58,073 nucleotides of DNA from a phage. Of this stretch, positions 3,242 to 55,412 are shown one piece after another (the first letter of the stretch is position 1; each line of letters opens with the position of its first letter). The stretch lies in sequence record PZ445420.1; one strand, given 5' to 3'. The position numbers were made by a program, and so were the translations under genes. The notes beneath the pieces were generated by a model that did no database searches, had not been told where the DNA came from, and saw nothing but the letters and a program-made list of their open reading frames with translations.

Positions 3242-4147
3242 GTGGAACGGTCCACAATGGAGAATTTTATGAACAAATATCACATTCATCTAGCGGTAGC
3301 TTATTCCGCTGGCTTCTTCCAGTCCATGCCTCGTTTTGGTGCATTGGAACTTGAATATAATTCTGAAGACGAAATCCCGGAAAACGCGCGTGAATATTAT
3401 TCCCAAGAAGGCGATAAGTGGATCCTCACTGGCGTAAAAGGTGGCGGTAAGCAGAATATTGACAGGTTGCAATCCGCACTTGAAAAAGAACGTAACGATC
3501 ATAAAGCGGTCAAGAGTAAGCTAAGTAAGCTGAACGGACGTGATATTGACGAACTCTTGCAGCGCGACGCTGAATATGAAGAGCTTAAACTGCGTGCGGA
3601 TAAAGTTGATGATGAAAAGTTGGAGCAAATCATTAACGTACGAATCCGTAACAAGTTAACTCCGCTTGAGCGTGAACGTGACGAGCTGAAAAACAAACTT
3701 TCTACCTATGAGAAGCAAGTAGAAGAGCTGACCACAAAAGAGAAGAACCGCATCGTTAAGACCGCTCTTAGCAAGGCTGCAATGTCTGCTAAAGTGATCA
3801 CGGAAGCTATTGACGACGTGGAACTGATTGGTTCTCGTTTGTTTGAGCTCACCGAAGACGGTCAGGTTGTAACGCGCGACGGTGTGGGTGTAACTCCGGG
3901 CATTACTCCAGAAATGTGGTTACAGGACATTCAGGATAAGAAACCTCACTGGTTCCCTGGAAACGTCGGCGGTGGTGCTGGTGGCTCACGTACTCCTGGC
4001 GCTGCTGGTAAGAACCCGTGGAGTGCAGAAGGTTGGAACCTTACTGAGCAGGGTAAAATTCTTCGTGAAAATCCTGAAAAAGCAGGCCGTCTGGCAGCCA
4101 TGGTTGGCGTGGACTTGAAGCGTCCAGTACGTCCAGTTAAAAAATAA
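3242..4147 (+). CDS. head scaffolding protein (candidate); start may be 3257 or 3269 (GGAG 6 nt upstream of 3269)
   Basis: Highly charged, predicted helical/coiled-coil protein between portal and major capsid gene; Gly-rich C-terminus. Confidence 0.5.
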   Translation: MERSTMENFMNKYHIHLAVAYSAGFFQSMPRFGALELEYNSEDEIPENAREYYSQEGDKWILTGVKGGGKQNIDRLQSALEKERNDHKAVKSKLSKLNGRDIDELLQRDAEYEELKLRADKVDDEKLEQIINVRIRNKLTPLERERDELKNKLSTYEKQVEELTTKEKNRIVKTALSKAAMSAKVITEAIDDVELIGSRLFELTEDGQVVTRDGVGVTPGITPEMWLQDIQDKKPHWFPGNVGGGAGGSRTPGAAGKNPWSAEGWNLTEQGKILRENPEKAGRLAAMVGVDLKRPVRPVKK

Positions 4148-21449: not shown

Positions 21450-23423
21450 TTAAGCGGCGTATGCGAGTTTTTCCAGCAATTTTTCCGCTTTAGCTATGTA
21501 CACTTCGTGGTTGAGATCTGGCGGTAACTGGTCAGTGAGTTCCATCATAGGTTTACCCCCTGCTGTCTTACCAACACGACCCCCACTCTTGACTATCAGT
21601 ATTTCAGGTACTTCTTCTTTTGTATAGTACCAGCGAACAACCTTACCTAATGGCTCACTATTCCATGCAGCGCCACCGTTAGCTGTCTTGATACAAACAA
21701 ACTTACGAATGTCCTGACACTCTATGATAGTTTTAGCAATTGGCGTACCGTCACGAAGCAGATTAACAACTGCATCCATAATGATCTCACCTTCTGCGTT
21801 TTTAGCAAGACCTGTCTCTGCGAACCAACCCTTACGTTTGGCTTTACCATCTGCTTTGATTGCGACGTAATTGTTAACGTTTGCAGAGTTAAGACGCAGG
21901 TACTGGTTCAGTTCCATTTCAAAGCCAGTTGTCTCTTCCCACCACTTGATGATATCAGTCATTAATTGCTTCTTAGCTTTGCAAGGTTTAATAACGATAC
22001 CATCCGTATTAGCACTAACGACCTGAATACCATTAAGCTCTAGTGTCTCAATGAGCATAAGTAGAGCTAACTGACCTGTGAGTGTAGTCTGAATAATAAG
22101 GTGCGGTGCATACAGAATAGAGAACGGTGAACCGAACTTACCATAGGAACCGTTGATAACGATCTTAAGAGTTTGTGCGGTCTTATCGTCATGAGCCATC
22201 TTAGCTGCAATACGTCGTTCTACGATCTTAACGAAGATATCTATAAATCGCGGGCCCAGGTGCTCAGGATACAGTTGCTGGTTAATGATACAGATCGGGT
22301 AGTATGACGTTACGTCAGCGTCCCACATCTCTTCATCTTCAGATGGTACAATCTCCATTAACTCTTCGCACGAGTGCAGACCACCGATACCCATGTTGTA
22401 GGTTGTCTGATTGATTGTAAACTTCAAAGAGTTCATTGTAGATGGTTGCTTAATTTTACCATCTTCTGCAACTCTGAAGTAACTGTCGAGCACCACCTGA
22501 AATACAGACTTCATTAGTGGCGTTTGGAAACCTAACCACACTGGAGGATTGTACCTAAAGGTTCTACCGACTTCCACCATCCCTTTCTGTGGTACGAAGC
22601 CCAGCATTTCCTTCATCTCATGACGGATTACAGCTTCTGCAATCTGTGCATCAGATTTAGAGCGAAGATCTACTTTATACTCTTCACTCATAATCTCACG
22701 TAGATGGATCTGTTCTTCCAGCGAGTTAAACAGTGCCATTGTTGTATCGAGGTCGTTAATACAGTAGAAACGCACAATAGCAATCTGTTCCATGGACAGC
22801 GCCCAATGCGGTGGGAACGGTAAGTCCTGGAGCTTCTTCATGTGCATACGGCCACCGTACAGCTTCAGTGAACCGAAGCCAGGAGCTACTTCCTGAACGT
22901 CAATGTGGTCAATCCAAAACTGTTTCACACCAAAACTGTTAAGAATGTCCCACGGAGCCCACTCTTCCTGGATCATCCTGTCACTTGCTTCTTTTAGCTT
23001 GTCGACAGTTAAACCAGCAATGGCAAGGAATGTCATCGTATTATCATAGTTTCTTGAGTTGAAACCAACGGTACGAAAGTTCTTCATTATCCATTCATAT
23101 TTTTCCGTGTCAAGTGTCTGACCGGCAGTCATTTCTAGATAATAAACCTTACCGAACTTAACCCCTTTAAACGCCACAAGAAAATAGTTCTTATAACATT
23201 CGATATCATATACGAATGTTTCTTGTGCAAAATACATCTCCACTAATTCACCGTCTGTCATACGCGGATCGTTAGCTGCAAAACGCATTGCTGCATCAAG
23301 ACCTGGAAGGTAGTCTGGGCGCTCCCATACCCTTTCAACTGGTTGACGTTTTACTTTCTGTTTCTTCTCTTTCTTAGCGGGAGGTAAATCCTCCCAAAAA
23401 AAACCAATAGCATCTTTTCTCAT
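21450..23423 (-). CDS. DNA polymerase, family-B-like with 3'-5' exonuclease motif
   Basis: 657 aa; Exo I-like YDIEC; motif A-like DADVTSYYP; motif B-like KIVINGSYGKFG; motif C variant SANTDG. Confidence 0.6.
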   Translation of the reverse strand: MRKDAIGFFWEDLPPAKKEKKQKVKRQPVERVWERPDYLPGLDAAMRFAANDPRMTDGELVEMYFAQETFVYDIECYKNYFLVAFKGVKFGKVYYLEMTAGQTLDTEKYEWIMKNFRTVGFNSRNYDNTMTFLAIAGLTVDKLKEASDRMIQEEWAPWDILNSFGVKQFWIDHIDVQEVAPGFGSLKLYGGRMHMKKLQDLPFPPHWALSMEQIAIVRFYCINDLDTTMALFNSLEEQIHLREIMSEEYKVDLRSKSDAQIAEAVIRHEMKEMLGFVPQKGMVEVGRTFRYNPPVWLGFQTPLMKSVFQVVLDSYFRVAEDGKIKQPSTMNSLKFTINQTTYNMGIGGLHSCEELMEIVPSEDEEMWDADVTSYYPICIINQQLYPEHLGPRFIDIFVKIVERRIAAKMAHDDKTAQTLKIVINGSYGKFGSPFSILYAPHLIIQTTLTGQLALLMLIETLELNGIQVVSANTDGIVIKPCKAKKQLMTDIIKWWEETTGFEMELNQYLRLNSANVNNYVAIKADGKAKRKGWFAETGLAKNAEGEIIMDAVVNLLRDGTPIAKTIIECQDIRKFVCIKTANGGAAWNSEPLGKVVRWYYTKEEVPEILIVKSGGRVGKTAGGKPMMELTDQLPPDLNHEVYIAKAEKLLEKLAYAA

Positions 23424-24412
23424 AGACGAAATCCTACAATTACCCCACGTAGATTTTCACCATAAAAAATAATAGGAGTTGAAAGACCCCTTTCGTCCTT
23501 TTCATTGAAACGAGAGGCATCCCAGTCCGTTGCAAGTCCTTTCAACTGCATAATAAGATCTATATTATACACGCCAATTGACTTGGATTCACGGAACATT
23601 GCACTAGCACCGTCCAGCTCGTTGTAATGGGTACGCACAACACCATTTTCCATATAAATACGCCCATCGCGTTCACAGAACGGTTTTATTTTCTCTAAGC
23701 AGTTAAAAAGCTCAGTATCAAGCGTATAGACGTTAGACCCCTTTTCTGTACGCTCAATTATCTTGTCAATGTTGGGCCACTTTAATTCCAGCAATTGGGT
23801 ACGCAACCAGCAACCGTCTTCGTAATGAAATGTCATACTGGTATCTGTACATTGAATTCTTACTGGTGGCTTTTTAATGCGCAATAGCTCCTTGATGGCC
23901 ATACGTGGCACAACACAATCTACAGGGAATACAGCGCCGAACCAATACTGTATAATACTAGCGTTGTTGGTCGCGTACATGCTGCCCTGTTTTACCAGCA
24001 CGCCGCAAGACCACGGGCGGGAAGCATCGTCGCTTATAAACGGCGTTACGCGGCTTAAACCGTTGAGAAAAAGCTGACCGTCTATTTCGTGAATTGTTCC
24101 TTCTGGCTCTACGTGTGCAGTTGGTTTCTGAAGAGTATCCACACTGACCTTAAAGCCACCAGACTTAATGCTCAACTTACCGTTCGCTAACATTGTCATC
24201 TGTACAGCTTCGTCACATGCTGCAATAGCCTTGAGCATCGGTTCAGCTTTCGGTGTACAGTCAATGTTCAGTGGTACTGGACTACATAATGAAATAGTTC
24301 CGTTGAACCCGCGCACAGTACCGTCGACAATACGGAAGTGAGTTAAACCTTCCTGGAGTTCTTTCTTAGCTACAGAACCCTGAACAAACTTTAAAGCATC
24401 AAGTAAATCCAT
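23420..24412 (-). CDS. hypothetical protein adjacent to DpdA-like gene
   Basis: 330-aa ORF translationally coupled to polymerase gene; contains SGGF segment; no confident assignment. Confidence 0.4.
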   Translation of the reverse strand: MDLLDALKFVQGSVAKKELQEGLTHFRIVDGTVRGFNGTISLCSPVPLNIDCTPKAEPMLKAIAACDEAVQMTMLANGKLSIKSGGFKVSVDTLQKPTAHVEPEGTIHEIDGQLFLNGLSRVTPFISDDASRPWSCGVLVKQGSMYATNNASIIQYWFGAVFPVDCVVPRMAIKELLRIKKPPVRIQCTDTSMTFHYEDGCWLRTQLLELKWPNIDKIIERTEKGSNVYTLDTELFNCLEKIKPFCERDGRIYMENGVVRTHYNELDGASAMFRESKSIGVYNIDLIMQLKGLATDWDASRFNEKDERGLSTPIIFYGENLRGVIVGFRL

Positions 24413-24420
24413 AAGTAACC

Positions 24421-25374
24421 TTACTCGTCAAATAAATCCTGGAGACGTTCGTTGAACTTCCCATTGTGGTTAGCAAGAATCATAGCGTTGACCACACCAT
24501 ACGCCCATAAATTGTATGCAGCGCGTGATTCGTATATCGTTGAAAGTCGCTCGTATGTGAAACCTGACTCCTCTAAGTAGCGTAGAACGTTATTCTGTTC
24601 TACTTCTGAAAGATTACAGATATGTTGCCCTTGATAGTGACGTGATGGAGACTTTTCGGACACCTGCATTGGACCCCACTTAGGCGTCTCAATAGCACCG
24701 AACGCCGCAGATTGAATCCAGGAGGATGAGTCACAGGAGTACCACGGGTAACGCTCCATAAGTGGGCGGGACGTAATACCAAAGCCATGGACTTTGATCT
24801 TAGCTCGACCACTACCGTCTACAAGGTGTTTATCCCATACCCTGTCTAGCCATACCTGAAGTTGTTGTGTACTCGCTCCAACAAGACCACCGAGAGTGAT
24901 ATATTCATAATTTCGTACATAATGGTCCAGGTATTCAAAAGGTTCACCCGCGTGGAAGCATGGTAAAGGTCTTACACCTCTGGCTTCCATCTCTTCCTGG
25001 TTACGCCATGTTTGAAGTGGATCACCGATACCATCGAGTACGGACGCCATAAGTGAACCATCCTCTACACGAATGATATCTATGTTTCGTTGGATGTAAT
25101 CACAGTATTCTTTAACTGATAACGTAACTCCCAAAGTGTAAGCTGAGAACGCTCCGGAGTCGAGGAATATCTTGGCCCCATCGGCACGCATGGCATCAAC
25201 ATATGATTGCTTTCCAACGTAATGGTAGGACTCAAGAATGTTTGGAATATTCTCGACAACACGTTTTTCTTGTTCGTTGAGTTTGACATAGCGGTTCATT
25301 CCTGGTTTATAGCTGTTCGTATATACGGCAGCCATATAAATCTGAAAGGTATAGTCGATATCTTGTCTGTGCAT
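24421..25374 (-). CDS. dpdA: DpdA-like 7-deazaguanine DNA transglycosylase (TGT-superfamily candidate)
   Basis: 317 aa; FLDSGAFS segment resembles TGT catalytic DSGGFQ region; immediately downstream of folE/queD/queC/queE genes. Confidence 0.45.
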   Translation of the reverse strand: MHRQDIDYTFQIYMAAVYTNSYKPGMNRYVKLNEQEKRVVENIPNILESYHYVGKQSYVDAMRADGAKIFLDSGAFSAYTLGVTLSVKEYCDYIQRNIDIIRVEDGSLMASVLDGIGDPLQTWRNQEEMEARGVRPLPCFHAGEPFEYLDHYVRNYEYITLGGLVGASTQQLQVWLDRVWDKHLVDGSGRAKIKVHGFGITSRPLMERYPWYSCDSSSWIQSAAFGAIETPKWGPMQVSEKSPSRHYQGQHICNLSEVEQNNVLRYLEESGFTYERLSTIYESRAAYNLWAYGVVNAMILANHNGKFNERLQDLFDE

Positions 25375-25443
25375 TGTTCACCTAACAAATAAGCGCCCGT
25401 AGGCGCTTATTATATTAAAGATAATGTATGATTCGCAAATCAG

Positions 25444-26079
25444 TTACTTTTTACACGCTTCAAGAAATTCCCGACGCCATGTGTCACCAGTTACATCAGG
25501 TAATACACAATCGCCCAATGCAGTACGCCCACGGAATGCTTTAGTAACGGTTGAGCTTCCACACACTTGTTTAACACCGCGCGACTCCATGCACATATGT
25601 TTTGCATCGATGTAAACACATACAGCTTTCGGGTCTAAGTGTTCTACGATAGCATCCGCAATCTGGTTAGTCAGACGCTCCTGAACTTGCAAACGACGGC
25701 TAAAAGCATCAACCACGCGAGACAGTTTACTAAGACCCACGATGCGACCGTTAGGAACATACCCCACGACAGCGTGACCGATAATAGGAGCCATATGATG
25801 CTCACAATGGCTATAAACTGGAATATCGCGAACGATAACCATTTCATCGCAGTTTTCCCCACCATCTTCAAATGTCTTGAACAGAGATGCAATATCAGTA
25901 TTGTAACCACCGAACCACGTCTCAAATGCTTTAGCAACACGTTCAGGTGTTTCTTCTAACCCTGGACGAAGAGGACCAAAATCATTTTCTTCAATCTGAC
26001 GAAGGATATTTTCAATGTGTTGCGCAATAACAAATTTATTCATGGTTTGCAGTTTCCTTGTGTGGTCAATTATTTGCAA
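25444..26079 (-). CDS. folE: GTP cyclohydrolase I
   Basis: 211 aa with VYSHCEHHMAP and GLSKLSRVVD motifs typical of FolE. Confidence 0.8.
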   Translation of the reverse strand: MQIIDHTRKLQTMNKFVIAQHIENILRQIEENDFGPLRPGLEETPERVAKAFETWFGGYNTDIASLFKTFEDGGENCDEMVIVRDIPVYSHCEHHMAPIIGHAVVGYVPNGRIVGLSKLSRVVDAFSRRLQVQERLTNQIADAIVEHLDPKAVCVYIDAKHMCMESRGVKQVCGSSTVTKAFRGRTALGDCVLPDVTGDTWRREFLEACKK

Positions 26080-26582
26080 TAGTTAACATGGCATTTGGAC
26101 GTTTCTTCAATGGTGCATTCTACAAGTTGAACACCATGTTCGTCAAGCAGTTGCGGACCAATTACGTTTACCATGTATGCAGCCAGGTTTTCCGCGGTTG
26201 GGTTGAATGGTAAAGCTACCAATGAGCCTAAGAAATGCTCATGGTCTTCATGTTCCAGAGGACAACTCGGGCGACTTGCTGCAATTTTCAAAGCGTCAAT
26301 CAAATTATCACGACTCCAATGCAGGAATTTATGATCCCAGTTATCTTCCAACCACTGGCAAAGCGTAGTTTTAACCACACTAAAGTCGATAACGCGACCT
26401 ACGTCGTCCAGTTGCTTAAGGGCCGCAAATTCAGCTTCGTCCATGACTTTATAAGGGACTTTTGGCGCAACCTTAAAGTGAAACTTATAGTTGTGCCCGT
26501 GCAGGTGGCGGCACTTACTCTCATGCCCAACTACACGGTGGCCAGCGCAAATTTCATGCGAACGGATTACTTCGTAGCTCAT
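26070..26582 (-). CDS. queD: 6-carboxy-5,6,7,8-tetrahydropterin synthase (QueD/PTPS family)
   Basis: 170 aa; CAGHRVVGHESKCRHLHGHNY zinc/catalytic motif typical of QueD. Confidence 0.75.
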   Translation of the reverse strand: MSYEVIRSHEICAGHRVVGHESKCRHLHGHNYKFHFKVAPKVPYKVMDEAEFAALKQLDDVGRVIDFSVVKTTLCQWLEDNWDHKFLHWSRDNLIDALKIAASRPSCPLEHEDHEHFLGSLVALPFNPTAENLAAYMVNVIGPQLLDEHGVQLVECTIEETSKCHVNYCK

Positions 26583-26827
26583 TCTGCCACCTCATAAGTC
26601 TGGGCAAAAATATCAGGTTTACACGGGTAATGCTCACCATTTACTCCTCGTATAATCCAGTCACCATTGGACGCTGTCATGACCCCTTCTAGAGTATTAA
26701 TTAATAAATTGTCGCCCATAACATGACAATCCCGCGACCCACTATTACAGAAATCGTATACTTCCTGCGTATTCAATCCAGTCCATTGAACAGCTTCAAT
26801 CACGACCGGCTTTTTACGGAATCTCAT
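26579..26827 (-). CDS. hypothetical protein
   Basis: 82-aa ORF coupled within deazaguanine cluster. Confidence 0.4.
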   Translation of the reverse strand: MRFRKKPVVIEAVQWTGLNTQEVYDFCNSGSRDCHVMGDNLLINTLEGVMTASNGDWIIRGVNGEHYPCKPDIFAQTYEVAE

Positions 26828-27228
26828 TGGGATTTCTCCACTTCAATAGCTGCTTTAATATCACGCAGTGCGCGAATTTCATGGTGCAGATAACCAGTAT
26901 CTTCTTCCACGTTTTCCGCAGCAACGCGCTCCAGGATAGTGATCAACGAATCAACGTGCGTTGACATCATATCCGCAAGGTTGGGATGACCTTTATAAAT
27001 GTCGTTCCCACTAATGCGATTATACAACGCAGCGGACGCTGATTGGTACTCCGGCCAGTCGTTAGCAATAAAAATCCCTTCGGTGACACCGCGCCCTTCA
27101 GCAACCCGCCCAAGGACAACGATGTCAGTCAGGTCTTCAATAGTCTCACGCTGGTCACGAGTGAGGTACTTTTTGACGTCATCGTTCTTAAGAACTAAGT
27201 AACGATGCTCGAAGCGTTTATCCTTCAT
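26824..27228 (-). CDS. hypothetical protein (134 aa from internal ATG of ORF 26824..27288)
   Basis: Start chosen to minimise overlap with upstream gene. Confidence 0.4.
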   Translation of the reverse strand: MKDKRFEHRYLVLKNDDVKKYLTRDQRETIEDLTDIVVLGRVAEGRGVTEGIFIANDWPEYQSASAALYNRISGNDIYKGHPNLADMMSTHVDSLITILERVAAENVEEDTGYLHHEIRALRDIKAAIEVEKSQ

Positions 27229-27487
27229 TTTCTTTCTCCATAAATTCACGGTATTTACGAACGCACTCGTCTTTACTACGGGACGCAAAACAGCGCCAAC
27301 CGTTGTCCAGCTTGTACGACCAGTAGAACGCGCCGAAACGTTTCTTCATCCGCTTAGTTACACAGACGCTCTGTTTCAGCATTGGGTTTTGAGACTTGAT
27401 AAAGGCAGCACGTTCAGCGGCAGGTAACATCTCATAGGCTTCCTTCTGCATACTGGCGTACACCGTTTCACGGAAATTCATCTTCAT
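27218..27487 (-). CDS. hypothetical protein
   Basis: 89-aa ORF inside deazaguanine cluster. Confidence 0.4.
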   Translation of the reverse strand: MKMNFRETVYASMQKEAYEMLPAAERAAFIKSQNPMLKQSVCVTKRMKKRFGAFYWSYKLDNGWRCFASRSKDECVRKYREFMEKENEG

Positions 27488-27521
27488 AAGAAGCTCCTGG
27501 ACGTCCTTGTCCGGTTGTTAG

Positions 27522-28937
27522 TTACTGTTCATCCAGATAGGTAATTACCTCTGGCGCACCATTAATACTAAATGCAGTCCGGCGCATCATGCAAGGGCCA
27601 CAAGTACCGCAATGCAAATCCCCGTTACGGTAACAGCTCCAGGTGTGCTCCAACGGGGCCCCTAAACGCAGACCTGTAGCGACAATTTCGTGCTTCATTA
27701 AGTTACCTACTGGCATAAGCACTTCAACGCGCTTACCGTCGCCTACAGCGAACGGTAACACTTGATTAAAGCGATTAATGAACTCAGGCTCATTGTCGGG
27801 GTAGGCTCCAGCTTCTTCTAGGTTGTTACCAAGAACAATATAGTCGAAACCGTTAGCTTCTGCGTATGCAGTAGCAACAGAAAGCATCACAAGGTTACGA
27901 GCTGGAACCCATTCATGCGCGAACTCAGCGCCTTCTTCACCGCCAGCAATTGTAGCATCTTGATCAAATAATGGGCTATCTTTCTTATCGTAGATCGGAA
28001 TTGGAAATTCAATTAATGGAACCCCCATCACCTCCGCAATCTTACGAATAGCGTACAGCTCATTAGTTTCTGCACGACAACCATATTGGAAGTTAATCAG
28101 AGTAACATCTAGACCATTGGACTTACATATCTGAGCTGCTACTGTGCTGTCCATACCACCACTGGCGACAACTAACGCACGTTGAGTCTGCTTATTTGGA
28201 ATAAGATCAACTTCATTGCATACATCAGTCGATGTGACCACATTACACGAATAAGGCTTCAGCATCTGCTTAATAGCACGGGTTGGTAGCATGTCTTCCT
28301 GGCTGGCGAAATACATACCAGTATCAGTCTTACCAATCCAGATTGGACGGTAATTACATGCTGCAAACACATACCCAGGAAGTGAATCGTGCGTTGCAAG
28401 GATTGCGTAACTTCCTTTCAACTTGCGAATAACTTCATGAAATACGTTATAAAGGTAATCTGAATCAGACAGACACGTTTCATCCGCTGAAAGTGTGCAT
28501 TCCGCTAACTGTTCAACAATCGCAGCACTATCAATTTTAGTCTGTAGTGCATAGGTACGAAGGTCTTTATCGTTCGCAATAGTACCGTTATGAACAATAG
28601 TCCAACCATCCATATGATACGGTTGCTGGTCCCACTCGTTCTTGTCAACGACCCACTCTGTAGTCGGTTCAGCACGAGCGTTACCAATCATTGTGAAGCT
28701 ACCAATAGCTCCAGCATGAGATACAATGCACCCAACTTTGACAGGACGTTCCAGTGATGTTTCCTTACCGACACTAACAATACGTTGCGGGTGCATACTG
28801 TGGTCACCATGCGTAAAGCGTACACCAAGACCATCACGACCACGCTTGATACTAGCTTTAATAAGATCACCAACATCGTTACGGATAATTTCACGTTCAG
28901 GTTGGCCATTAGTAATAACACCAAAGATGGAGCACAT
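27522..28937 (-). CDS. queC: glutamine amidotransferase (class II) fused to QueC-like 7-cyano-7-deazaguanine synthase (Gat-QueC)
   Basis: N-terminus MCSIFGV (Ntn class-II GATase, as in AsnB); C-terminal PP-loop SGGMDS and Cys cluster C...CGTCGPC typical of QueC. Confidence 0.75.
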   Translation of the reverse strand: MCSIFGVITNGQPEREIIRNDVGDLIKASIKRGRDGLGVRFTHGDHSMHPQRIVSVGKETSLERPVKVGCIVSHAGAIGSFTMIGNARAEPTTEWVVDKNEWDQQPYHMDGWTIVHNGTIANDKDLRTYALQTKIDSAAIVEQLAECTLSADETCLSDSDYLYNVFHEVIRKLKGSYAILATHDSLPGYVFAACNYRPIWIGKTDTGMYFASQEDMLPTRAIKQMLKPYSCNVVTSTDVCNEVDLIPNKQTQRALVVASGGMDSTVAAQICKSNGLDVTLINFQYGCRAETNELYAIRKIAEVMGVPLIEFPIPIYDKKDSPLFDQDATIAGGEEGAEFAHEWVPARNLVMLSVATAYAEANGFDYIVLGNNLEEAGAYPDNEPEFINRFNQVLPFAVGDGKRVEVLMPVGNLMKHEIVATGLRLGAPLEHTWSCYRNGDLHCGTCGPCMMRRTAFSINGAPEVITYLDEQ

Positions 28938-28938
28938 A

Positions 28939-29697
28939 TTATTTACCTTCTTTAACCATTTCAATTTCACGCTCAACGGATGCAATAATATCGTTGAGGT
29001 CTTCCAGTAAGTCTTTATGACCGCGCTCACCCGCACACAGCACTTTCTTCAGTGCATGTTGCATGGGCCCACTGGTTACATTGAATGCTTTAATTACGTC
29101 GTACACGTCAACCCACACATCAATTTCAATCGGGCTACCGTTAATGTCATGTGATTCAAAACTTTTGATTTTGCGCATATATTTATTCGGACGTGGAGCT
29201 TTAATATCCTGGATGCAATCCTTATTAACAAACGCTTCATTAACGAATAGTTCCGGCTCGCCTTCTTTGTCACGATCAACTTTAAAGACGCTCGCAAGTA
29301 CATCTTCCATGATACCAGCTAATTTTTCAGAAGAAGTTTTATGATTTTTAACCACCTCTTCCACTTCTTCCGCTTTCTGTGTCCCGCTAACAGAAGGACT
29401 AATGCGCCATTTGTAAAGCGCATTACGCGGAGGCGTTACATGCGTGTTGTAGACTGTCTTTAAGTTCATAAGATCATTTCCATCCATACCTTCAACAAAG
29501 ACAGTGAGTGCGGGACTGCTATCGTTCAGAACATCTACTAAATATCCTTCTCGAATTACAGATGCAAGAGCTGCATGGGACGCCGCTTGAGAAACTGTGG
29601 TCACATAATGTTTTACAAATCCGTCTTCATCAAACAGACACTGGTTTAACACATTTTCTGGAACAATTTGACCGAGTAATTGAATATGCTTATTCAT
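28939..29697 (-). CDS. hypothetical protein (252 aa) between queE and gat-queC
   Basis: ORF with stop adjacent to gat-queC start; no recognisable catalytic motif. Confidence 0.45.
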   Translation of the reverse strand: MNKHIQLLGQIVPENVLNQCLFDEDGFVKHYVTTVSQAASHAALASVIREGYLVDVLNDSSPALTVFVEGMDGNDLMNLKTVYNTHVTPPRNALYKWRISPSVSGTQKAEEVEEVVKNHKTSSEKLAGIMEDVLASVFKVDRDKEGEPELFVNEAFVNKDCIQDIKAPRPNKYMRKIKSFESHDINGSPIEIDVWVDVYDVIKAFNVTSGPMQHALKKVLCAGERGHKDLLEDLNDIIASVEREIEMVKEGK

Positions 29698-29814
29698 AAC
29701 GATTTACCTTATTAGTTGAACATACCGTGTCTTTTAGCGCGTTGACCGTCACCAGCATAATGATCATTAGCCGCAGCAATCATCCACGCGTTTTTGAATA
29801 TGTATAACTTCACT

Positions 29815-30069
29815 TTACACCTTAGTTAACGTCTGAGTCCAGTCTAGACCTTCAAGATCAACTTTTGCAATCTTCTCGTAATAACCAGCATCAATATCAG
29901 GAACCCAGCGACCATACTCCACATTACAACATATTGGATCGTCTTCGTAACCCATCACAGTTCCGTTTTTATCACAGGCAAGATAGGTGACCCAATTTGG
30001 AACTGTTAAGTTAATACCATGAAACTTAACAACTTTATTAGTTTTAAACAGAGCTTTTACACGCATCAC
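29815..30069 (-). CDS. hypothetical protein
   Basis: 84-aa ORF overlapping queE stop. Confidence 0.4.
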   Translation of the reverse strand: MMRVKALFKTNKVVKFHGINLTVPNWVTYLACDKNGTVMGYEDDPICCNVEYGRWVPDIDAGYYEKIAKVDLEGLDWTQTLTKV

Positions 30070-30854
30070 TCTACACCTAAATATTTGTGAATCTGCAACT
30101 GCACGATGTAATTATGCTTCATTGCGTATTTAACAACAGCTTGAGCGTTTGCTTTGTTAGCAACGTCATCTTGTTCATCCATAGGTTGAAGATAAATCTT
30201 ACCTTTAAAGTGTACAGGTGGACGTGCGATAAATGGTGTCGCACGGTGATCCAGTGCCTGCAACGGTAATCCATCTTCCTCGTTGACGTTTCCACTTTTC
30301 ATTACATATTTGAAAGCATTCGCTCGGGCGGAAACGCTAGGGTGAACCTTTGCTGCCTTAGGACTACATACTACCACACAGTTATAGTTGAGTTCACGCG
30401 GGATAGGCATAGTTCCGTTAGTTTCGACCTGTACGCGATAACCTTTCATATCAATAAGGTAATTGATAAAATTAGCAACTTCAGGTTGACGGAAAGGTTC
30501 GCCGCCAGTAATGACAACTAATTTAGTCTTAGCTTCACCAGTAACACGGACAATCTCTTGCCAAATATCCCTGTGGTTCATCCTCTTACGATTGGACGTG
30601 TAGTTTGTGTCACACCCTGGGCATTGCAGATTACAACCAGCTAATCGAACAAATACGGCAGGTTGACCACAAAATGGGCCTTCGCCTTGAATGGTATGAA
30701 AAATGGAATGCACGTCAAGAATACCACGTTCACGAACTAGCTTCTCAGGTTCCTGAGTATTAATAATTTTCATATGATTTCCAAATTTGACTTGAGCCCA
30801 GTGGTGGGCGATAATGGCTTGTGCAAACATTTGAACCTCGGGGTAAGATAACAA
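30066..30854 (-). CDS. queE: 7-carboxy-7-deazaguanine synthase (radical SAM)
   Basis: 262 aa; CNLQCPGC (CX3CX2C radical-SAM cluster motif); cluster context. Confidence 0.75.
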   Translation of the reverse strand: MLSYPEVQMFAQAIIAHHWAQVKFGNHMKIINTQEPEKLVRERGILDVHSIFHTIQGEGPFCGQPAVFVRLAGCNLQCPGCDTNYTSNRKRMNHRDIWQEIVRVTGEAKTKLVVITGGEPFRQPEVANFINYLIDMKGYRVQVETNGTMPIPRELNYNCVVVCSPKAAKVHPSVSARANAFKYVMKSGNVNEEDGLPLQALDHRATPFIARPPVHFKGKIYLQPMDEQDDVANKANAQAVVKYAMKHNYIVQLQIHKYLGVE

Positions 30855-30898
30855 AGGGGCAGTAAATGCCCCTTCTGAGTTTCCGAAGTATCTACAGA

Positions 30899-31723
30899 TT
30901 ACTCTGCAGTTTTCTGAGACGGAATTTCTACGTTAGCGGCCGCTTGTGCAATATTAGCAGGTACTGGAACGGATACGCGACCAGTAATGCCCATGTATTT
31001 TTTCCAGCGAGCATATTCCGCTTTAACGTTCGCTTCGTTCAGGCCTTTGTCCAGTGCAACAGGCAGAACGTAGCTGATCGGCGCAGTCTGACCCAGCTCC
31101 AGGGTGACAGCGTCAAAGATATCCCATGCAGCACGGCACAGAGTACCGACACCAGGCTTACGAATACCGTTCTGTTCAGGCTCTTTCTTAGCTTCGCGTT
31201 CTGCTGCTTTACGAGCGCGCTCTTCGTCCTGCAGACGTTTCTTCTCAGCGCGTTGTGCGTCACGTTGCGCTTTTTCAGCGGCCTTAGTGGCTTCGCGGGC
31301 AGCGGATACACGACCTTTAACATCTTTCAGAGTGGATTCAATGGAGGAAACCAGATCTTCAGATGCTGCAACGGCAGTTTTCAGCTGATCGTTGTCTTTA
31401 ACTTTACGTGCTGCCGCTTTAACAGCTTTCAGACCTTCTTTAGCGGTCTTCAGTTGAGCGGTAACTACGCCTTCAACTGCTTTAACTTCGTCCAGCAATG
31501 AACCTTCGTTCAGGGTCGCGAACTGTTCTTTAACAGCGGACACAGCACCTTCGATCACATTGTAACCGGCAGTGGCTTCGTTCAATGCGGCGTCAACTTT
31601 AGCCTGCAATTCACGTGCTGCTTTTTCTTCAGCTTCACGTTTTTTCTTTGCTTCAGCTTCTTTTGCTGCTTTCTTTGCAGCTTCTTCTGCTTCCAGTTGT
31701 TCTGGAGTTTTCTCTTTAGCCAT
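30899..31723 (-). CDS. hypothetical protein with Lys/Ala/Glu-rich low-complexity N-terminal two-thirds and globular C-terminal domain
   Basis: 274-aa ORF; strong compositional bias; opposite-strand ORFs here are artefacts of this bias. Confidence 0.5.
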   Translation of the reverse strand: MAKEKTPEQLEAEEAAKKAAKEAEAKKKREAEEKAARELQAKVDAALNEATAGYNVIEGAVSAVKEQFATLNEGSLLDEVKAVEGVVTAQLKTAKEGLKAVKAAARKVKDNDQLKTAVAASEDLVSSIESTLKDVKGRVSAAREATKAAEKAQRDAQRAEKKRLQDEERARKAAEREAKKEPEQNGIRKPGVGTLCRAAWDIFDAVTLELGQTAPISYVLPVALDKGLNEANVKAEYARWKKYMGITGRVSVPVPANIAQAAANVEIPSQKTAE

Positions 31724-32562: not shown

Positions 32563-34566
32563 TTAAAACGGTATGTCGTCATCAAAATCTGGTGGTAGTT
32601 CTTTACCGTTACCAGTAAGAATAGGTTGATTAGACGTAGAATGCAATACCGTCGTACGGGAATCAGTCTGCTCATCTTCATCAAACTTATTCGTATAATT
32701 TCCACCAAACTGGGACAGACCATTCATTGCTGCAATTTGTACGACCGGACGTTCGTTTGTTGCTTCTTTCTTACCGAACTCACTACCGTCATAACAACTA
32801 TTCAACACTTCAGGAAACTTACCCTTCAAGTTGACATAAATGTGCGTCGGTACACGAAGCTGACTGACCACATTGAGGGCTTCGTCAATGTTAGCTGGGA
32901 TTGCCAGGCTACAATGTTCGCGCCACCAGTTACGCGCTTTCTTACCTGCAAAACCAGTGTGGAACAGGCAGATGTATTGTTGAATAGTTTGTGAGCCACA
33001 AAGATAATCAACACGAAGTGTTGGTGGTTTAGAACGGTCACCTCTGTTCTCGTGACGATAGTAACTCACCATATCAACTTTCAGCACTTCGGTAACTGGT
33101 AAATCATTCTTGATAATAGCTTTCGTACTTGCACTCGCCATTAGTTTCTTCTCAAAAGTAAACTCATGACCGCAATAACCAGCACGACACGCTTTATTAT
33201 TTGTGATGGTATAACCTAATCCTTGAAGATAGAGTATTTCTTCATGTGACATGCTGCTTGTGTCGAATGGTTTTAACCCACCACAGAAGCGAACTGACGC
33301 ATGGTTCCATGTTTTACATATTGGGCATTCCTTAACAGGTGCAGCGGATTTTCCTTTCTGCCCTGGACGCTTAGGAATGACAGGGTCATTAATAGGACCA
33401 AGACGTCTTGTGTTACCTGCATAATCCAATACAAGACAGTTCTGTTTATGCGAAGCAGAGATAGCTTGCAAACGACCCTCTGTTGTGGTCAAATCAAAAC
33501 CATCTGCATAATCAGGTCGTGTACCACGTCCAAGCATCTGAACCCACAAACGGGAAGATTGAGATGGTCGCATACCAATTATCAAGTCAAGGCCCGGATG
33601 GTCAAAACCTGTCGTCAATACGTTGTTGTTCGCTATTGCCTGCAAACGACCAGCTTTAAAGTCAATAAGATACTGGTCACGCAATGCTTTCGGTGTATCA
33701 CCAGTTACAACTTCGCAACTAATACCGCGATCATTAAGATAGTCTTTTACATCCTTTGCATGGTCCACACCAGCACAAAAGATAAGCCAACTCATCCTAT
33801 TCTCTTCTTCCGCAATACTAATCGCATCATCTAACAAATGACGTGTTACATCAGGGTCGTTTACAACTTTCTGAAGTTCACTTTCAATGAACTCACCGCC
33901 TCGAGTATGAACACCACTTACATCATACTCTTTCTTTGTTTTACGTGGTACTAACGGAACCAGATAACCTTCATCAATAAACCAGTTGAAGCACTCTACG
34001 GTACACGCGTTAAATACGATTTCATCAAATAAAGCGTTAGGCGCATAATCATCTTTGATAATAGAACCAAAACCAAGACGCCAACTTGTAGCAGTAAGAC
34101 CGATAATCTTTAGATATGGATTCTTTTCACGAATGTGCGCAAAGAATTTCTGATAACTTGTTTGTTGATTTGGACTAATAAGGTCACATTCGTCAACTAT
34201 AATAATATCAACGTCCTCAAAGTATTTAGCTTGTTTTGCAACAGACTGAATACCCGCGAACGTTATCATTGCGTTCTTATCTTTGCGGCCCATACCAGCA
34301 CTGTAAATACCAGTCGGTGCTTCAGGCCACAGCTTCTTAAATTTATCGTGGTTCTGGTCTATCAATTCTTTTACGTGAGTAATTACCATCATGCGGGTAC
34401 TACCCCAATTATCGTGAATTGTCTTTAATAGACCAGCAATTACAAGGGACTTACCAGTCCCCGTAGGCAACAAGATAACAGGATTTCCTGACTTTTCACC
34501 ATGCTTGATGAAATAGCGCAATGTACTATTTACAGCTTCTTGCTGATAATCACGTAGTTTGAACAT
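32563..34566 (-). CDS. SF2 DNA helicase (DEAD/DExD-box-like) with C-terminal DFDDDIPF tail
   Basis: 667 aa; Walker A LPTGTGKS, DECD box, LTAT motif III; Cys-rich segment CPICKTWNHASVRFC; last 8 residues DFDDDIPF. Confidence 0.8.
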   Translation of the reverse strand: MFKLRDYQQEAVNSTLRYFIKHGEKSGNPVILLPTGTGKSLVIAGLLKTIHDNWGSTRMMVITHVKELIDQNHDKFKKLWPEAPTGIYSAGMGRKDKNAMITFAGIQSVAKQAKYFEDVDIIIVDECDLISPNQQTSYQKFFAHIREKNPYLKIIGLTATSWRLGFGSIIKDDYAPNALFDEIVFNACTVECFNWFIDEGYLVPLVPRKTKKEYDVSGVHTRGGEFIESELQKVVNDPDVTRHLLDDAISIAEEENRMSWLIFCAGVDHAKDVKDYLNDRGISCEVVTGDTPKALRDQYLIDFKAGRLQAIANNNVLTTGFDHPGLDLIIGMRPSQSSRLWVQMLGRGTRPDYADGFDLTTTEGRLQAISASHKQNCLVLDYAGNTRRLGPINDPVIPKRPGQKGKSAAPVKECPICKTWNHASVRFCGGLKPFDTSSMSHEEILYLQGLGYTITNNKACRAGYCGHEFTFEKKLMASASTKAIIKNDLPVTEVLKVDMVSYYRHENRGDRSKPPTLRVDYLCGSQTIQQYICLFHTGFAGKKARNWWREHCSLAIPANIDEALNVVSQLRVPTHIYVNLKGKFPEVLNSCYDGSEFGKKEATNERPVVQIAAMNGLSQFGGNYTNKFDEDEQTDSRTTVLHSTSNQPILTGNGKELPPDFDDDIPF

Positions 34567-35517
34567 TTACTCACCGTAATAATCTGCTGCTTCGTATTGA
34601 CCACATGCTGCCATCTGGTCTTCCTTCGTTAATACACCTTCAGTTCCATCCGTGATGTATGCAGTAGCAGAAGCTACTTTGATTGCGCATCTCCAGGTTC
34701 CATCTTCAAGCGGATAAGAATGCTTACAGGTGCGGCAGTTAACTTCAGGCATTTTGTTGTTATGGCACACTGCTTTGTGGTCACACCATTTGCATTTATA
34801 GTAAGATTTACTTTCATTGATCTTAGGTGGTGGGCATTCTGCCAGTGCAATTACAAACCCACGGTCTTTGTAGCGTTCTGCGGTTTCTTTATCAAACGGT
34901 ACAAGCTCTGCCCAAATCTCGTCCGTGTTCTTATTAACTGCAATATAAAGAGCGGCTGGGAGTCCATAATACAACATGTATTCCTGCATCTGAACATAGT
35001 GCTCCCATTTGGATTCCATCACACCATTAACGACAAGTTTCTTGAACGAATCGTTATTGTGCGTTTTCATCTCCGTCAAGATTGGTGTAGAAGGTTGTGG
35101 CATGTCGGGGCAACCAATGACAATACCATCTATCGCGGAGCCAAAGTGCCCGTTGAGATAGCTAACTCGATACTGGCTGCCATTTTCGTCTTGTTGGATG
35201 ACTTGCATACCGGCAGTAAGTAATAAGGCCACGAAGCGACCTTCTTCAAGATGCCCGCGATTGAATAGACGTAAGGTTTTACCGTTAAAGTGTGGTTTTG
35301 TTGCCCATCGCCATCCGTAGAAGATTGCTCTGCTACACTCTTGCCCGATAAGACTAATCCCAAGATGCGAACGGAATCCGCCATCTCCCTCTCGGTATGC
35401 GTCTTCAATATGCGGTAATACTTTTCCGAGCCATACTCTGTAAGCGGATCCTTGATCTCGTTCAATACAGTCATTGAATAACTCCATTGTCTTAGTAGCA
35501 GGATAAAAATGTGGCAT
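34567..35517 (-). CDS. PD-(D/E)XK-type nuclease with C-terminal 4-Cys cluster (Cas4/DUF2800-like exonuclease, candidate)
   Basis: 316 aa; C-terminal CKWCDHKAVC...CRTCKHSYP...C cluster; sits in helicase-nuclease-SSB-Sak4 module. Confidence 0.45.
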   Translation of the reverse strand: MPHFYPATKTMELFNDCIERDQGSAYRVWLGKVLPHIEDAYREGDGGFRSHLGISLIGQECSRAIFYGWRWATKPHFNGKTLRLFNRGHLEEGRFVALLLTAGMQVIQQDENGSQYRVSYLNGHFGSAIDGIVIGCPDMPQPSTPILTEMKTHNNDSFKKLVVNGVMESKWEHYVQMQEYMLYYGLPAALYIAVNKNTDEIWAELVPFDKETAERYKDRGFVIALAECPPPKINESKSYYKCKWCDHKAVCHNNKMPEVNCRTCKHSYPLEDGTWRCAIKVASATAYITDGTEGVLTKEDQMAACGQYEAADYYGE

Positions 35518-35579: not shown

Positions 35580-36500
35580 TTACTGTGCAGCGTCATCGCC
35601 TTCAGTGGAACGTTTCCACGGTGGAGTCTTGGTCTGAGCTGCTTTAGCGATATCGTCCTGGACTTCAGGTTCTGCATGGTTAGCAGTACCAGTGTTCTGA
35701 GCTTGAGTTTGCGGTTGCTCTGCTCCAGGCTGTACCTGCTGAGTTGCCCAGTTAGGCTGCTGTGTGGTTTGTTGCTGCGGCTGCTGCGCACCAGTAGCCC
35801 ACGGTTGAGATTGCGCCGCACTGTTAAAATCAACTGTTCCAGACTGCTGCTGTTGCTGTACCGGCTGCTGCGGCTGTTGTTGCTGCTGCGGTTGCTGGAA
35901 CCCCTGAGTCTGAGGTTGTTGCTGCTGTTGCTGCGGCTGCTGCCCAAATGCGCCCGGGAAACCCTGCTGCTGCGGCTGCTGTTGTTGCTGAGCACCACCG
36001 AACGCACCGCCACCAAATGCCGGGGATTGTGCTGCCGCTGCCGGAGTTGATTTAGGCAGGTTAGCCATATCCGCCTTAGTTGCGTATACAACACCTTCCA
36101 TGTTATCAATTGCTTGATAAATCTGAGGTTCGTTGTTTGGCTCATAGCCAGGTTGCTGACGAACTTTCACTTTCAGGTTAAACGGAATACCGTGCAGTTG
36201 TTCAGTATCGTTCCAAACTGGAACTTTAACAGCACGGGACAGCTCTGCCAGTTCTTCCATTGCAATCTGTACAGCAACAGGGTTCGCGTTCTTGACGTTG
36301 TAACCGCCAAACATCACACGACCAGCAAAATCACCCTGCATAATCTTAAACTGAAGATTCAGACGCGCACCGCCTGGAGTTTTAGTCGGTTTGATTTCAG
36401 AGTTTACGATCTGAACAACATACCAACCAGCGGGCATCAAGCTGTTGTGTTGACGCTCTGCGTGCTGTCCAGCGTTAAATTGTATTCCTAAACCGGCCAT
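35580..36500 (-). CDS. SSB-like protein (DUF2815-type candidate) with Gln/Pro-rich low-complexity C-terminal region
   Basis: 306 aa, adjacent to Sak4-like ATPase gene; long QQQ/QQP tract. Confidence 0.4.
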   Translation of the reverse strand: MAGLGIQFNAGQHAERQHNSLMPAGWYVVQIVNSEIKPTKTPGGARLNLQFKIMQGDFAGRVMFGGYNVKNANPVAVQIAMEELAELSRAVKVPVWNDTEQLHGIPFNLKVKVRQQPGYEPNNEPQIYQAIDNMEGVVYATKADMANLPKSTPAAAAQSPAFGGGAFGGAQQQQQPQQQGFPGAFGQQPQQQQQQPQTQGFQQPQQQQQPQQPVQQQQQSGTVDFNSAAQSQPWATGAQQPQQQTTQQPNWATQQVQPGAEQPQTQAQNTGTANHAEPEVQDDIAKAAQTKTPPWKRSTEGDDAAQ

Positions 36501-37246
36501 TATTGTACCCCTTTGATTTTGTTAATGATTGCACCGAGATGTGGATATTCCATCTGTTCTAACGAACCAGAACGATCTTTACATACATTTGACAGATCTG
36601 GTCTTGTCAGCAGATAACGAAAATCTACTTGAGTATTTTGGTCTTTACCAACACTAATCTTGAACACTTCGTCAAAAAAGTATGGTAATTCTGGACCTAA
36701 TTTTGCACCAGGCATAGAAGGACCATAAGACGTAATACCTGTCAGCTCATCCTTGTTACGGGACATTTTAGCTGCCATATACACGTTAAGTCCAGGAATA
36801 TCTCGAAAAGCACGAACCAAAGTTTGCATCTTCTCAATGAGATCCCCATAAGCCTGACGCGGATCCTTCACAGTACGCTTCGCATTGTTAAGGCACTTTT
36901 CAGCAATCTCAGTAAGTGAATCCAGCGCAAGAGACTGAAAGCGCGGTAAACCATCTTCACATACAGGGTTGTTTGCAGGGTTAGTCGCCCAAACATAAGC
37001 CTGCTCCACATCCTGGATATTTTCAACCGTGATGGTTGGAATATCGTAACAGATATCTGGTCTGTTTTCACCAAACACACGAGCAATGTTATTCGGTGTT
37101 AAAGACAAAAGCCCAGACTCTGCAGAAATCAGCAACGGTCTTGGAAGAGTTGCTGTAAGCATGGTCTTACCCATACCGGATTCACCATACACAAGCATCT
37201 TGACACCAGTGTCCAAAACTGCCTGCGCGGTAGTTGTAAATTGCAT
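36500..37246 (-). CDS. Sak4-like RecA-core ATPase (recombination/annealing)
   Basis: 248 aa; Walker A GESGMGKT near N-terminus; size and neighbourhood typical of Sak4. Confidence 0.55.
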   Translation of the reverse strand: MQFTTTAQAVLDTGVKMLVYGESGMGKTMLTATLPRPLLISAESGLLSLTPNNIARVFGENRPDICYDIPTITVENIQDVEQAYVWATNPANNPVCEDGLPRFQSLALDSLTEIAEKCLNNAKRTVKDPRQAYGDLIEKMQTLVRAFRDIPGLNVYMAAKMSRNKDELTGITSYGPSMPGAKLGPELPYFFDEVFKISVGKDQNTQVDFRYLLTRPDLSNVCKDRSGSLEQMEYPHLGAIINKIKGVQ

Positions 37247-54567: not shown

Positions 54568-54921
54568 ATGGGCTTGCAACGTTTTGACAATGCAGAACTC
54601 GCGTGTGAATTTGCAAAGCGCAAGTTTGCTAAAACAGGTACGCCGCGATGCGTACACGCGGCTATTGGGCAAAATGGGGCAAAGTATTGGTACGTTGGTA
54701 CAGTAGCTCAGATCAAGCGAAGATTCGCGACTACGCCCGAAATGCGCCGGCTTGGGTCCCCTACACTTGTGCGAAACAGGCAATTGGATAAAGAGGAAAT
54801 TTATCAATTTCTTAGGAATTACACTGGTAAAGAGAATAGATTTCAGGTTGCAGCGAAAGAGTTTAATATCGGTCTTTCCACTGCTTATAAAATTTATCAC
54901 ATATATGGGCGTTTAATATGA
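54568..54921 (+). CDS. hypothetical protein
   Basis: 117-aa ORF; overlaps next gene. Confidence 0.4.
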   Translation: MGLQRFDNAELACEFAKRKFAKTGTPRCVHAAIGQNGAKYWYVGTVAQIKRRFATTPEMRRLGSPTLVRNRQLDKEEIYQFLRNYTGKENRFQVAAKEFNIGLSTAYKIYHIYGRLI

Positions 54922-55412
54922 CCGCAATTGCTTATCGTAATGGTATATTGGCAGTAGATCGTCAGGTTACATGGGGTAATATTGCAACAACTACGAATAA
55001 AGTTCATACTGTTGATATCCCAGGAATTGGACTGTGCCTTGTTGCAATGTCTGGTAAACTACGTCCTGTAGATGATATTGTAGAACATCTAAAAACTACC
55101 TCGCGAGGACGTAAAGAGCCTTTCTCTGATTTAATTCCGGATTCACGTTATGGTATTGCGGTGACGCAGGAACGTGTCGTGTATCCCATCTACGGCGATG
55201 GTAAATTGGGTCTACCAGACACTAATGAATTTATTGCGGAAGGTAGCGCGTTTGAGTTCTTGATGGGTACAATGGCGGCAGGTTGCGGAGCAGAAGAGGC
55301 TGTAAGATTGGCCTGTCATTACTGCGATAGCTGTGGTCAGGGTGTTGACTTCTATGACGTAGCTTATACTCTTAAGATGGCTCAGTGTACAGACGAGGAG
55401 GAACCATTTTGA
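54918..55412 (+). CDS. HslV-like / proteasome beta-type Ntn-hydrolase peptidase homolog
   Basis: 164 aa; N-terminus MTAIAYRNGILAVDRQVTWGN...NK parallels E. coli HslV [25 protein letters not shown]...KK (Thr after Met, D-x-Q-x-T-x-GN, Lys about 30); later IAEGSA parallels IAIGSG. Confidence 0.55.
   Translation: MTAIAYRNGILAVDRQVTWGNIATTTNKVHTVDIPGIGLCLVAMSGKLRPVDDIVEHLKTTSRGRKEPFSDLIPDSRYGIAVTQERVVYPIYGDGKLGLPDTNEFIAEGSAFEFLMGTMAAGCGAEEAVRLACHYCDSCGQGVDFYDVAYTLKMAQCTDEEEPF

Follow-up and report, generated by a model that had tools for sequence, protein, structure and literature searches.

The helicase gene and its C-terminus

The DNA analysed here is a 58,073-nucleotide stretch from a phage (record PZ445420.1, hereafter the window), and its element of interest is the C-terminus of a helicase encoded on the minus strand. 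The open reading frame (ORF) at 32563-34566 encodes 667 aa and ends ...ELPPDFDDDIPF-stop; read on the minus strand, bases 32563-32589 are GAT TTT GAT GAC GAC ATA CCG TTT TAA, which translate to DFDDDIPF-stop. These eight residues correspond to the acidic C-terminal tip (SSB-Ct) of SSB, E. coli's binding protein for single-stranded DNA. The gene is composed as follows:

32563..32565, minus strand: helicase stop codon TAA, read from the sequence
32566..32589, minus strand: SSB-Ct-type acidic tip DFDDDIPF, residues 660-667, with a free C-terminal Phe, equal to the last eight residues of E. coli SSB
32590..32718, minus strand: predicted disordered tether, residues 617-659, from AlphaFold2 confidence (predicted local distance difference test, pLDDT) and the variability of the linker in the family
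32719..34566, minus strand: folded RadD-like superfamily 2 (SF2) helicase body, residues 1-616, from matches to Pfam, the PDB, Foldseek and E. coli RadD

The C-terminal tail peptide of the helicase is GKELPPDFDDDIPF, and the translation of E. coli K-12 ssb ends ...EPPMDFDDDIPF; the last eight residues of both proteins are identical, and the preceding Pro-Pro is common to both. Given the amino-acid composition of the window, an exact match of these eight residues at one of its ~80 C-termini would be expected by chance with a probability of 2.3e-9, and even the loose motif [DE]3[ILV]PF only with 4e-5. The helicase is the sole case, as no second ORF in the window ends in such a tip. The only other acidic xPF end in the window belongs to a 173-aa ORF at 54891-55412 on the plus strand (phrog_1040, 'peptidase HslV family'), whose C-terminus is ..CTDEEEPF.

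By megablast, the gene matched 17 phage records with 100% coverage and 94-96% nucleotide identity, which identifies the window as a 9g-like Nonagvirus of E. coli, and by tblastn the protein was at least 99% identical in 17 related Nonagvirus records, tail included. Furthermore, the 90% cluster of the helicase protein counts 205 members. As the same protein with its tail recurs in related genomes and throughout this cluster, it is no artefact, and both a chance match and a sequencing error at the C-terminus were ruled out by this recurrence together with the conservation among homologues described below and the chance figures. The tail is a real and strongly selected feature.

An earlier note, made from the letters of the window alone, had described a phage SF2 helicase ending in the E. 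coli SSB tip DFDDDIPF. Translation of both genes confirmed the identity, and the Pfam domains of the protein (ResIII, DEAD and Helicase_C) as well as the placement of the phage among the 9g-like Nonagvirus bear out the description. A different C-terminus on resequencing, which the note had named as fatal to its claim, finds no support in the related Nonagvirus records, which carry the same protein with the tail. The inferred enterobacterial host was right for this phage of E. coli, but by coincidence and not by logic, because Pseudomonas and Sphingomonas phages have helicases with the same end, D[FL]DDDIPF, which is therefore not diagnostic. The 24 nt encoding the tip differ from the 3' end of host ssb at three synonymous positions only, a stretch too short to decide whether the tip was recently copied.

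A conserved tip on a variable tether

AlphaFold2 modelled a folded protein up to residue 616, followed by residues 617-667 with pLDDT <50. This predicted layout of a folded body, a disordered tether of ~45 residues and a terminal tip is the same as that of the SSB C-terminus. Conservation divides the tail in the same manner: of the 120 homologues that matched best (44% identity or more), about 116 end in an acidic [IV]PF tip, and the 30 residues preceding it are hypervariable. In a position profile built from 166 distinct tail-bearing homologues, the terminal Phe (position 0) was present in 99%, Pro at -1 in 100%, Ile or Val at -2 in 96%, and an acidic residue at -3, -4 and -5 in 88%, 92% and 78%, respectively. 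The linker between the conserved G598 and the tip has a median length of 35 aa (5-95% range 21-64) and is rich in A/P/T/V/D/S/E, with no residue exceeding 19% at any position.

The resemblance to SSB extends upstream of the tip. Among helicases ending DDDIPF, position -6 is occupied by F, M or L in 69% (F 35%, M 22%, L 12%), -7 by D in 54% and -9 by P in 25%; canonical phage SSBs ending DDDIPF have F or M at -6 in 78% (F 65%, M 13%), D at -7 in 65% and P at -9 in 44%. The extended helicase motif P-x-D-[FML]-DDDIPF hence matches the tails of phage SSBs, and the alignment with SSB tails and homologous helicases that the earlier note had proposed thereby yields a conserved tip as well as a matching extended motif. 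The features of an SSB-Ct, namely an extreme C-terminal Pro-Phe, an acidic run, a hydrophobic residue at -6 and an unconserved linker, are all present in the sequence, and tip, variable tether and SSB-like extended consensus together mark the sequence as a short linear motif of the SSB-Ct type that is under selection. Of the molecular mimicry that the earlier note had put forward, the selected SSB-type docking motif stands, given the conserved tip and the variable, predicted disordered linker, and mimicry itself is plausible.

In six homologues (P0058, P0076, P0101, P0106, P0053 and L016), a second, internal DDDIPF lies ~20-25 residues before the terminal copy, a pattern suggestive of a tip duplicated in tandem. 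LPF takes the place of IPF in a minority of the helicase tails (L211 from Acinetobacter phage HD01, ..GEDDLPF, as well as L023, L025, L027, L046, L059 and P0082). In the wider helicase family, which comprises 11,376 representatives at 50% clustering (E<=1e-30), only about 23-25 of the 150 best-matching representatives bear the tip.

Exchange of the tip among three carriers

The genomic context was compared across 80 related viral loci, in which the helicase tail was present in 53 and absent in 23. Directly downstream of the helicase in 20 of these 23 tail-less loci lies a gene for a small protein ending ..DEIPF, often overlapping the helicase stop codon, and this gene is absent from all tail-bearing loci and from the window. 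Counted by carrier, 53 loci possess the tail only, 20 the small ORF only, none both and three neither (Fisher p 1.6e-15, a value that ignores phylogeny). The small protein (61-84 aa in these 20 loci, 61-93 aa in the family) follows the pattern CxxC...C...PP...GC..W..[DE][IV]PF-stop with four conserved Cys and corresponds to phrog_23504, a family without assigned function or Pfam match. [IVL]PF ends 50 of its 52 cluster representatives, with the consensus ..H/W-x-D-E-I-P-F. A likely role, that of a tip carrier, can thereby be given to this family, whose members often lack annotation. Its sites are:

Directly downstream of the helicase: L040, L043, L044, L047, L048, L055, L058, L060, L061, L066-L071, L075-L077, L079, L081, L085 and L087
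Further sites: L213 about 1634-1838; L210:3233-3448

Stenotrophomonas phage ply2008005c has no annotation for the small protein, Vibrio phage VpKK5 lists it as orf25, and one JGI (Joint Genome Institute) record calls it 'RecR'. In L057 (about 3712-4123), the tail-less helicase is separated from its small ..LPF protein by an inserted HNH-endonuclease-like ORF. In T4, a small accessory gene, uvsW.1, similarly comes after UvsW.

In a neighbour-joining tree, the small-protein arrangement forms a basal grade and the tail-bearing helicases, but for a single outlier, group into one large derived clade. Because of this topology, the simplest history is that the tip moved once from the small protein to the helicase and was then kept.

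A third carrier was found in Pseudomonas phage SCUT-S4 (Septimatrevirus), where the helicase is tail-less and the small protein absent. Here, the clamp-like processivity factor (L086:7851-8993) is extended by 17 residues that end in NYEDDIPF, and no other annotated protein of the 42.9-kb genome bears a tip. In the Septimatrevirus-type clamp family (P0323-P0442), 111 of 120 cluster representatives end in a ..[DE]DDIPF-type tip with an aromatic or hydrophobic residue at -6, and eight of them end in DNFPPF. The window has a homologue of this clamp, which lacks a C-terminal extension of the SCUT-S4 type:

23420..24412, minus strand: clamp-like processivity factor, tip-less, 24% identical (E 5e-27) to the SCUT-S4 clamp

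Pfam gave nothing usable for the clamp, polymerase and nuclease of the phage or for the gene lying downstream of its helicase, and the label 'clamp' derives from database records.

Kinship to RadD and possible docking of the tail on its own helicase

The helicase carries a Walker A motif PTGTGKS at residues 34-40 and a motif II DECD at 125-128. Its closest PDB chains by sequence are those of RadD (6jde and 7r7j, E 8e-65), with the next family at E 1e-14, and E. coli RadD is 37% identical across 431 aa. The AlphaFold2 model (mean pLDDT 84) retrieved the RadD crystal structures by Foldseek with E 3.5e-35 over ~640 columns, other folds following ~20 orders of magnitude behind, and the family shows no variation in the cysteines of the zinc ribbon (C414, C417, C428 and C465). 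By sequence and predicted fold, the phage protein is therefore a full-length RadD-family SF2 helicase. It is not a canonical SSB with an oligonucleotide/oligosaccharide-binding (OB) fold, since it has no Pfam SSB domain and its predicted fold is RadD-like; nor did a phmmer search with E. coli SSB match anything in the helicase loci.

Some homologues are longer: P0031 (995 aa) bears precomputed intein and homing-endonuclease Pfam domains (PF05204, PF05203, PF14528), and in P0174, P0177, P0178 and other representatives of 800-1583 aa, which have no domain annotation, the helicase profile matches in at least two separated stretches, which suggests inserted sequence.

E. coli RadD binds the SSB-Ct with a dissociation constant of ~5 uM in a hydrophobic pocket framed by R21, R49 and R145, and either SSB or the SSB-Ct peptide alone stimulates the RadD ATPase ~3-fold (PMC10238739). 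As far as its sequence tells, the phage enzyme is thus the homologue of an SSB-tip receptor which itself bears the ligand, and the tail might occupy the RadD-type pocket of the helicase itself, either in cis or on another molecule, as an activating peptide, such as SSB provides to E. coli RadD, or as a gate to the pocket. The hydrophobic pocket residues and one basic residue are preserved in accordance with such self-regulation: F19 is invariant, L46 occurs as F or L, I121 and I155 are kept, and K153, the equivalent of R145, is basic in 120 of 121 phage-family sequences. A small ..IPF protein translationally coupled to the helicase, as encoded by relatives, would also fit a stoichiometric activator. 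However, the phage family has no basic residue at the positions of R21 and R49, which are each essential in RadD; often D/E, or N/G/S/T, stands there, albeit with adjoining insertions that leave the alignment uncertain. Moreover, the tail-bearing, small-protein and tip-less classes conserve the pocket to the same degree, so that its covariation with the tail does not discriminate, and a clamp-borne tip fits this explanation poorly. Single-chain AlphaFold2 models gave no sign of cis docking, with a tip pLDDT of 33-43 in both the window helicase and P0105, a natural variant with a 7-residue linker, which is weak evidence. Taken together, we consider self-regulation quite unlikely.

The recombination module, the phage's own SSB and a possible phage-encoded receptor

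The helicase is the last gene of a conserved four-gene module, which also encodes a Sak4-like annealase, an SSB of the DUF669 type and a Cas4/RecB-like nuclease; the latter co-occurs with the helicase in nearly all of the 80 related loci. The module and the phage DNA polymerase lie at:

34567..35517, minus strand: Cas4/RecB-like exonuclease, upstream neighbour of the helicase (Cas4-domain exonuclease annotation in 9g)
35580..36500, minus strand: phage SSB of the DUF669 type, 306 aa, with a Q-rich linker (Pfam DUF669)
35616-35624, minus strand: PPW motif near the C-terminus of the DUF669 SSB, conserved in related loci
36500..37246, minus strand: Sak4-like RecA-family annealase, a candidate receptor (Pfam AAA_24)
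21450..23423, minus strand: phage DNA polymerase, a candidate receptor by analogy to T7 (9g gp01 annotation)

The C-terminus of the DUF669 SSB is ..TPPWKRSTEGDDAAQ, with a long Q-rich low-complexity linker before PPW. Such a PPW-like motif occurs within the last 16 aa of the protein in 59 of 59 related loci, and an [ILV]PF end in 0 of 59; the SSB of the window has no DDDIPF tip either. The annotation of 9g, a close relative, lists a clamp and a separate primase/helicase, but no clamp loader.

These neighbours provide candidates for a receptor encoded by the phage itself. By analogy to T7, the tip might tether the helicase, the small protein or the clamp to the phage polymerase or to Sak4, and its likeness to host SSB would have arisen since the host SSB tip is used by that phage protein as well. 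The T7 polymerase is bound by the acidic tails, each with a terminal Phe, of both helicase and SSB (PMC12339929), and all three tip carriers described above are plausible polymerase partners. Likewise, Sak4 of HK620 needs the last six residues, NDYPPF, of its cognate SSB (PMC5928155), which resemble the DPDYVPF of Seuratvirus helicases, and the tip diverges among phages of one host, as a co-evolving phage receptor would allow. On the other hand, unlike in T7, the phage's own SSB tail (PPW) differs from the helicase tail, the extended motif closely follows the bacterial SSB-Ct consensus, and no receptor pocket was identified in any phage protein. We regard a phage-encoded receptor as possible, if somewhat unlikely, and as nearly as good an explanation as the host partners considered below.

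Genes for DNA modification by 7-deazaguanine (queuosine/archaeosine-type), typical of Queuovirinae, adjoin the helicase module at 24421-31000 on the minus strand. They include:

30066-30854, minus strand: QueE-like radical SAM (S-adenosylmethionine) gene (9g annotation)
27522-29036, minus strand: 504-aa ORF, annotated as aminotransferase in 9g, with QueC at the same position in MiCath
24421-25374, minus strand: tRNA-ribosyltransferase-like gene (9g annotation)

SSB-type tips on other phage proteins

In a sample of 121 viral ORFs ending DDDIPF-TAA, 58 were canonical SSBs, and the others included an AAA_25/KaiC-like ATPase, a DUF3127 protein, a DUF669 protein and many without Pfam match. Examples that are not SSBs, and the contigs of one recurrent small family, are:

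L090:3-1106; L136:11414-11752; L142:3106-3570: non-SSB ORFs ending DDDIPF
L122, L123, L128, L131, L132, L139, L140, L144 and L201-L204: viral contigs with phrog_1811 proteins ending DDDIPF

The phrog_1811 family (73-76 aa, MRDLF..KYEAEI..GEHPQF.., function unassigned) ends in DDDIPF without an SSB-like domain, and its members may be free-standing tip carriers. Furthermore, the phage SSB-like protein Bas52_0087, which has a host-like FDDDIPF C-tip and triggers DRT10, was proposed to engage host ExoI (bioRxiv 10.64898/2026.04.29.721553).

Proposed docking in trans on readers of the host SSB tip

Which function would keep such a tip under selection? A docking function is very probable: we infer the binding itself from the conservation of the tip across three carriers, the predicted disordered tether and the full SSB-Ct consensus, and the sequence comparisons give good support for docking onto readers of SSB tips. 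In the mechanism that we propose, the last 8-10 residues would be a docking peptide of the SSB-Ct type, in which an acidic run, Ile-Pro-Phe and a free carboxylate are presented on a flexible tether of ~45 residues, and the tip would insert in trans into the hydrophobic, basic-rimmed pocket of SSB-interacting proteins. Docking would thereby couple the helicase, which may act on branched recombination or replication intermediates together with Sak4, the DUF669 SSB and the Cas4-like nuclease, to a partner that reads the SSB tip. Because the phage's own SSB has no such tip, the helicase would supply a hub signal that is absent from DNA coated by phage SSB.

As for the receptor, we infer its identity as a host SSB partner, as well as the action in trans, from several arguments: the motif follows the bacterial consensus and not that of the phage's own SSB, DNA coated by phage SSB presents no such tip, many phage proteins of diverse kinds end in DDDIPF, and the host-like C-tip of Bas52_0087 was proposed to engage ExoI. 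We put the probability that the tip docks in trans on host SSB partners at roughly 0.4. The leading candidates would be PriA and the chi subunit of the host clamp loader, the latter being attractive because the 9g annotation has a clamp but no clamp loader.

Several observations weigh against a host receptor. Seuratvirus WildeMaa, which has the same E. coli host, carries the tail DDPDYVPF instead, and the tips of the small proteins are less acidic; since both differ from the host tip, exact host mimicry is not required, and a co-evolving phage receptor fits at least as well. Moreover, helicase, small protein and clamp would be natural partners of the phage DNA polymerase by the analogy to T7. 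Finally, the hosts identified so far are all Proteobacteria, with Acinetobacter phage HD01 giving the one LPF tip among them.

A more far-reaching form of docking on host partners is that the tip is a portable and obligatory SSB-Ct cassette in a widespread phage module for replication and recombination with a tip-less DUF669 SSB, carried in turn by helicase, small protein and clamp, and addressed to one receptor which normally reads the host SSB tip. We consider this form unlikely, but if it is true with chi as the receptor, a phage replisome with a clamp and without a clamp loader borrows the clamp loader of its host.

Alternatively, the tail might be a decoy in competition with host SSB for interaction partners, an option raised in the earlier note, and might for instance blunt nucleases of the host or SSB-reading defence systems. 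Phage proteins of this kind are indeed linked to defence, as SSB-like ones are to the triggering of DRT10, and the Seuratvirus helicase Heli22 of the family studied here triggers Retron-Eco11; the Retron-Eco11 study reports expression of a 658-aa Seuratvirus helicase of this family as the trigger, and a look under 'C-terminal tail' and 'SSB' turned up no account of a helicase tail in it. A decoy is nevertheless very improbable. The host SSB tetramer carries four tails, and the helicase tail would be outnumbered by thousands of them; in addition, a tether on a DNA-bound enzyme suggests local recruitment and not titration, and the tip carriers are always replication or recombination proteins. 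Even less can be said for a degradation tag or a selectively neutral remnant, to which we assign a next to negligible probability. To our knowledge, there is no evidence for such a degron in E. coli. Its deep conservation, the SSB-like extended motif and the occurrence on three carriers point to a specific binding function for the tip, although in Streptococcus mutans the ..DDLPF C-terminus of SSB is reported to be associated with recognition by ClpXP (PMC5143411).

What is new here is the link to RadD, the clade-wide conservation of the tip, its exchange among three carriers and its absence from the phage SSB. In the literature on phage helicases with DDDIPF or SSB-Ct, on RadD-like phage proteins and on Queuovirinae helicases, we found no description of the tail.

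Genome maintenance in bacteria has its central recruitment signal in SSB tips, which have also been proposed as an antibiotic target. In the window, this signal sits on a phage homologue of RadD, itself a reader of the signal, where it is under strong selection; in related phages, it moves among helicase, small protein and clamp. The tail thus offers an eight-residue experimental handle in phages infecting E. coli K-12, such as the BASEL phages FritzHoffmann and WildeMaa, by which one can learn what SSB partner remains necessary to a phage whose SSB is non-canonical, or whether a built-in SSB peptide can switch on RadD-type enzymes. The tail may also bear on why this helicase family triggers Retron-Eco11.

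Comparison with known systems

The closest relative in fold is E. coli RadD, with which the phage helicase shares the two RecA-like domains, the zinc ribbon and the C-terminal domain. In contrast, RadD has no acidic tail and ends ..RLAHELRG; it is the receptor of the SSB-Ct, whereas the phage protein carries the ligand and, as far as the uncertain alignment allows, lacks two of the three essential pocket arginines.

In its tail, the helicase instead resembles E. coli SSB itself (MDFDDDIPF), with which it has in common the last eight residues, their position at the extreme C-terminus, the consensus P-x-D-[FML]-D-D-D-I-P-F and a variable disordered linker. The carrier differs, as it is an SF2 helicase without an OB fold, presumably with one tail per molecule compared to four per SSB tetramer, and with a linker rich in A/P/T/V/D/S/E, where that of E. 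coli SSB is visibly G/Q/P-rich.

The T7 protein gp4 is a hexameric SF4 replicative helicase-primase whose tail ..DTDF matches that of T7's own SSB (gp2.5). The system described here is of another type, as its carrier is a RadD-like SF2 helicase and not an SF4 enzyme, and as its tail matches the host SSB and differs from the PPW-bearing end of the phage SSB. What both have in common is a phage helicase with an acidic, SSB-tail-like C-terminus and a terminal Phe, which in T7 serves docking (PMC12339929).

A further parallel is the SSB tail NDYPPF of HK620, where Sak4 likewise stands beside a distant SSB homologue and a short C-terminal aromatic motif recruits a partner. There, however, the PPF/PPW-type motif resides on the SSB, whereas in the window the two kinds of motif are divided between proteins, PPW being on the DUF669 SSB and DDDIPF on the helicase. 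Finally, Bas52_0087 differs in its carrier, an SSB-like protein with two predicted OB folds in place of a helicase, but it is likewise a phage protein that bears the E. coli SSB C-tip as a proposed interface with host SSB partners such as ExoI.

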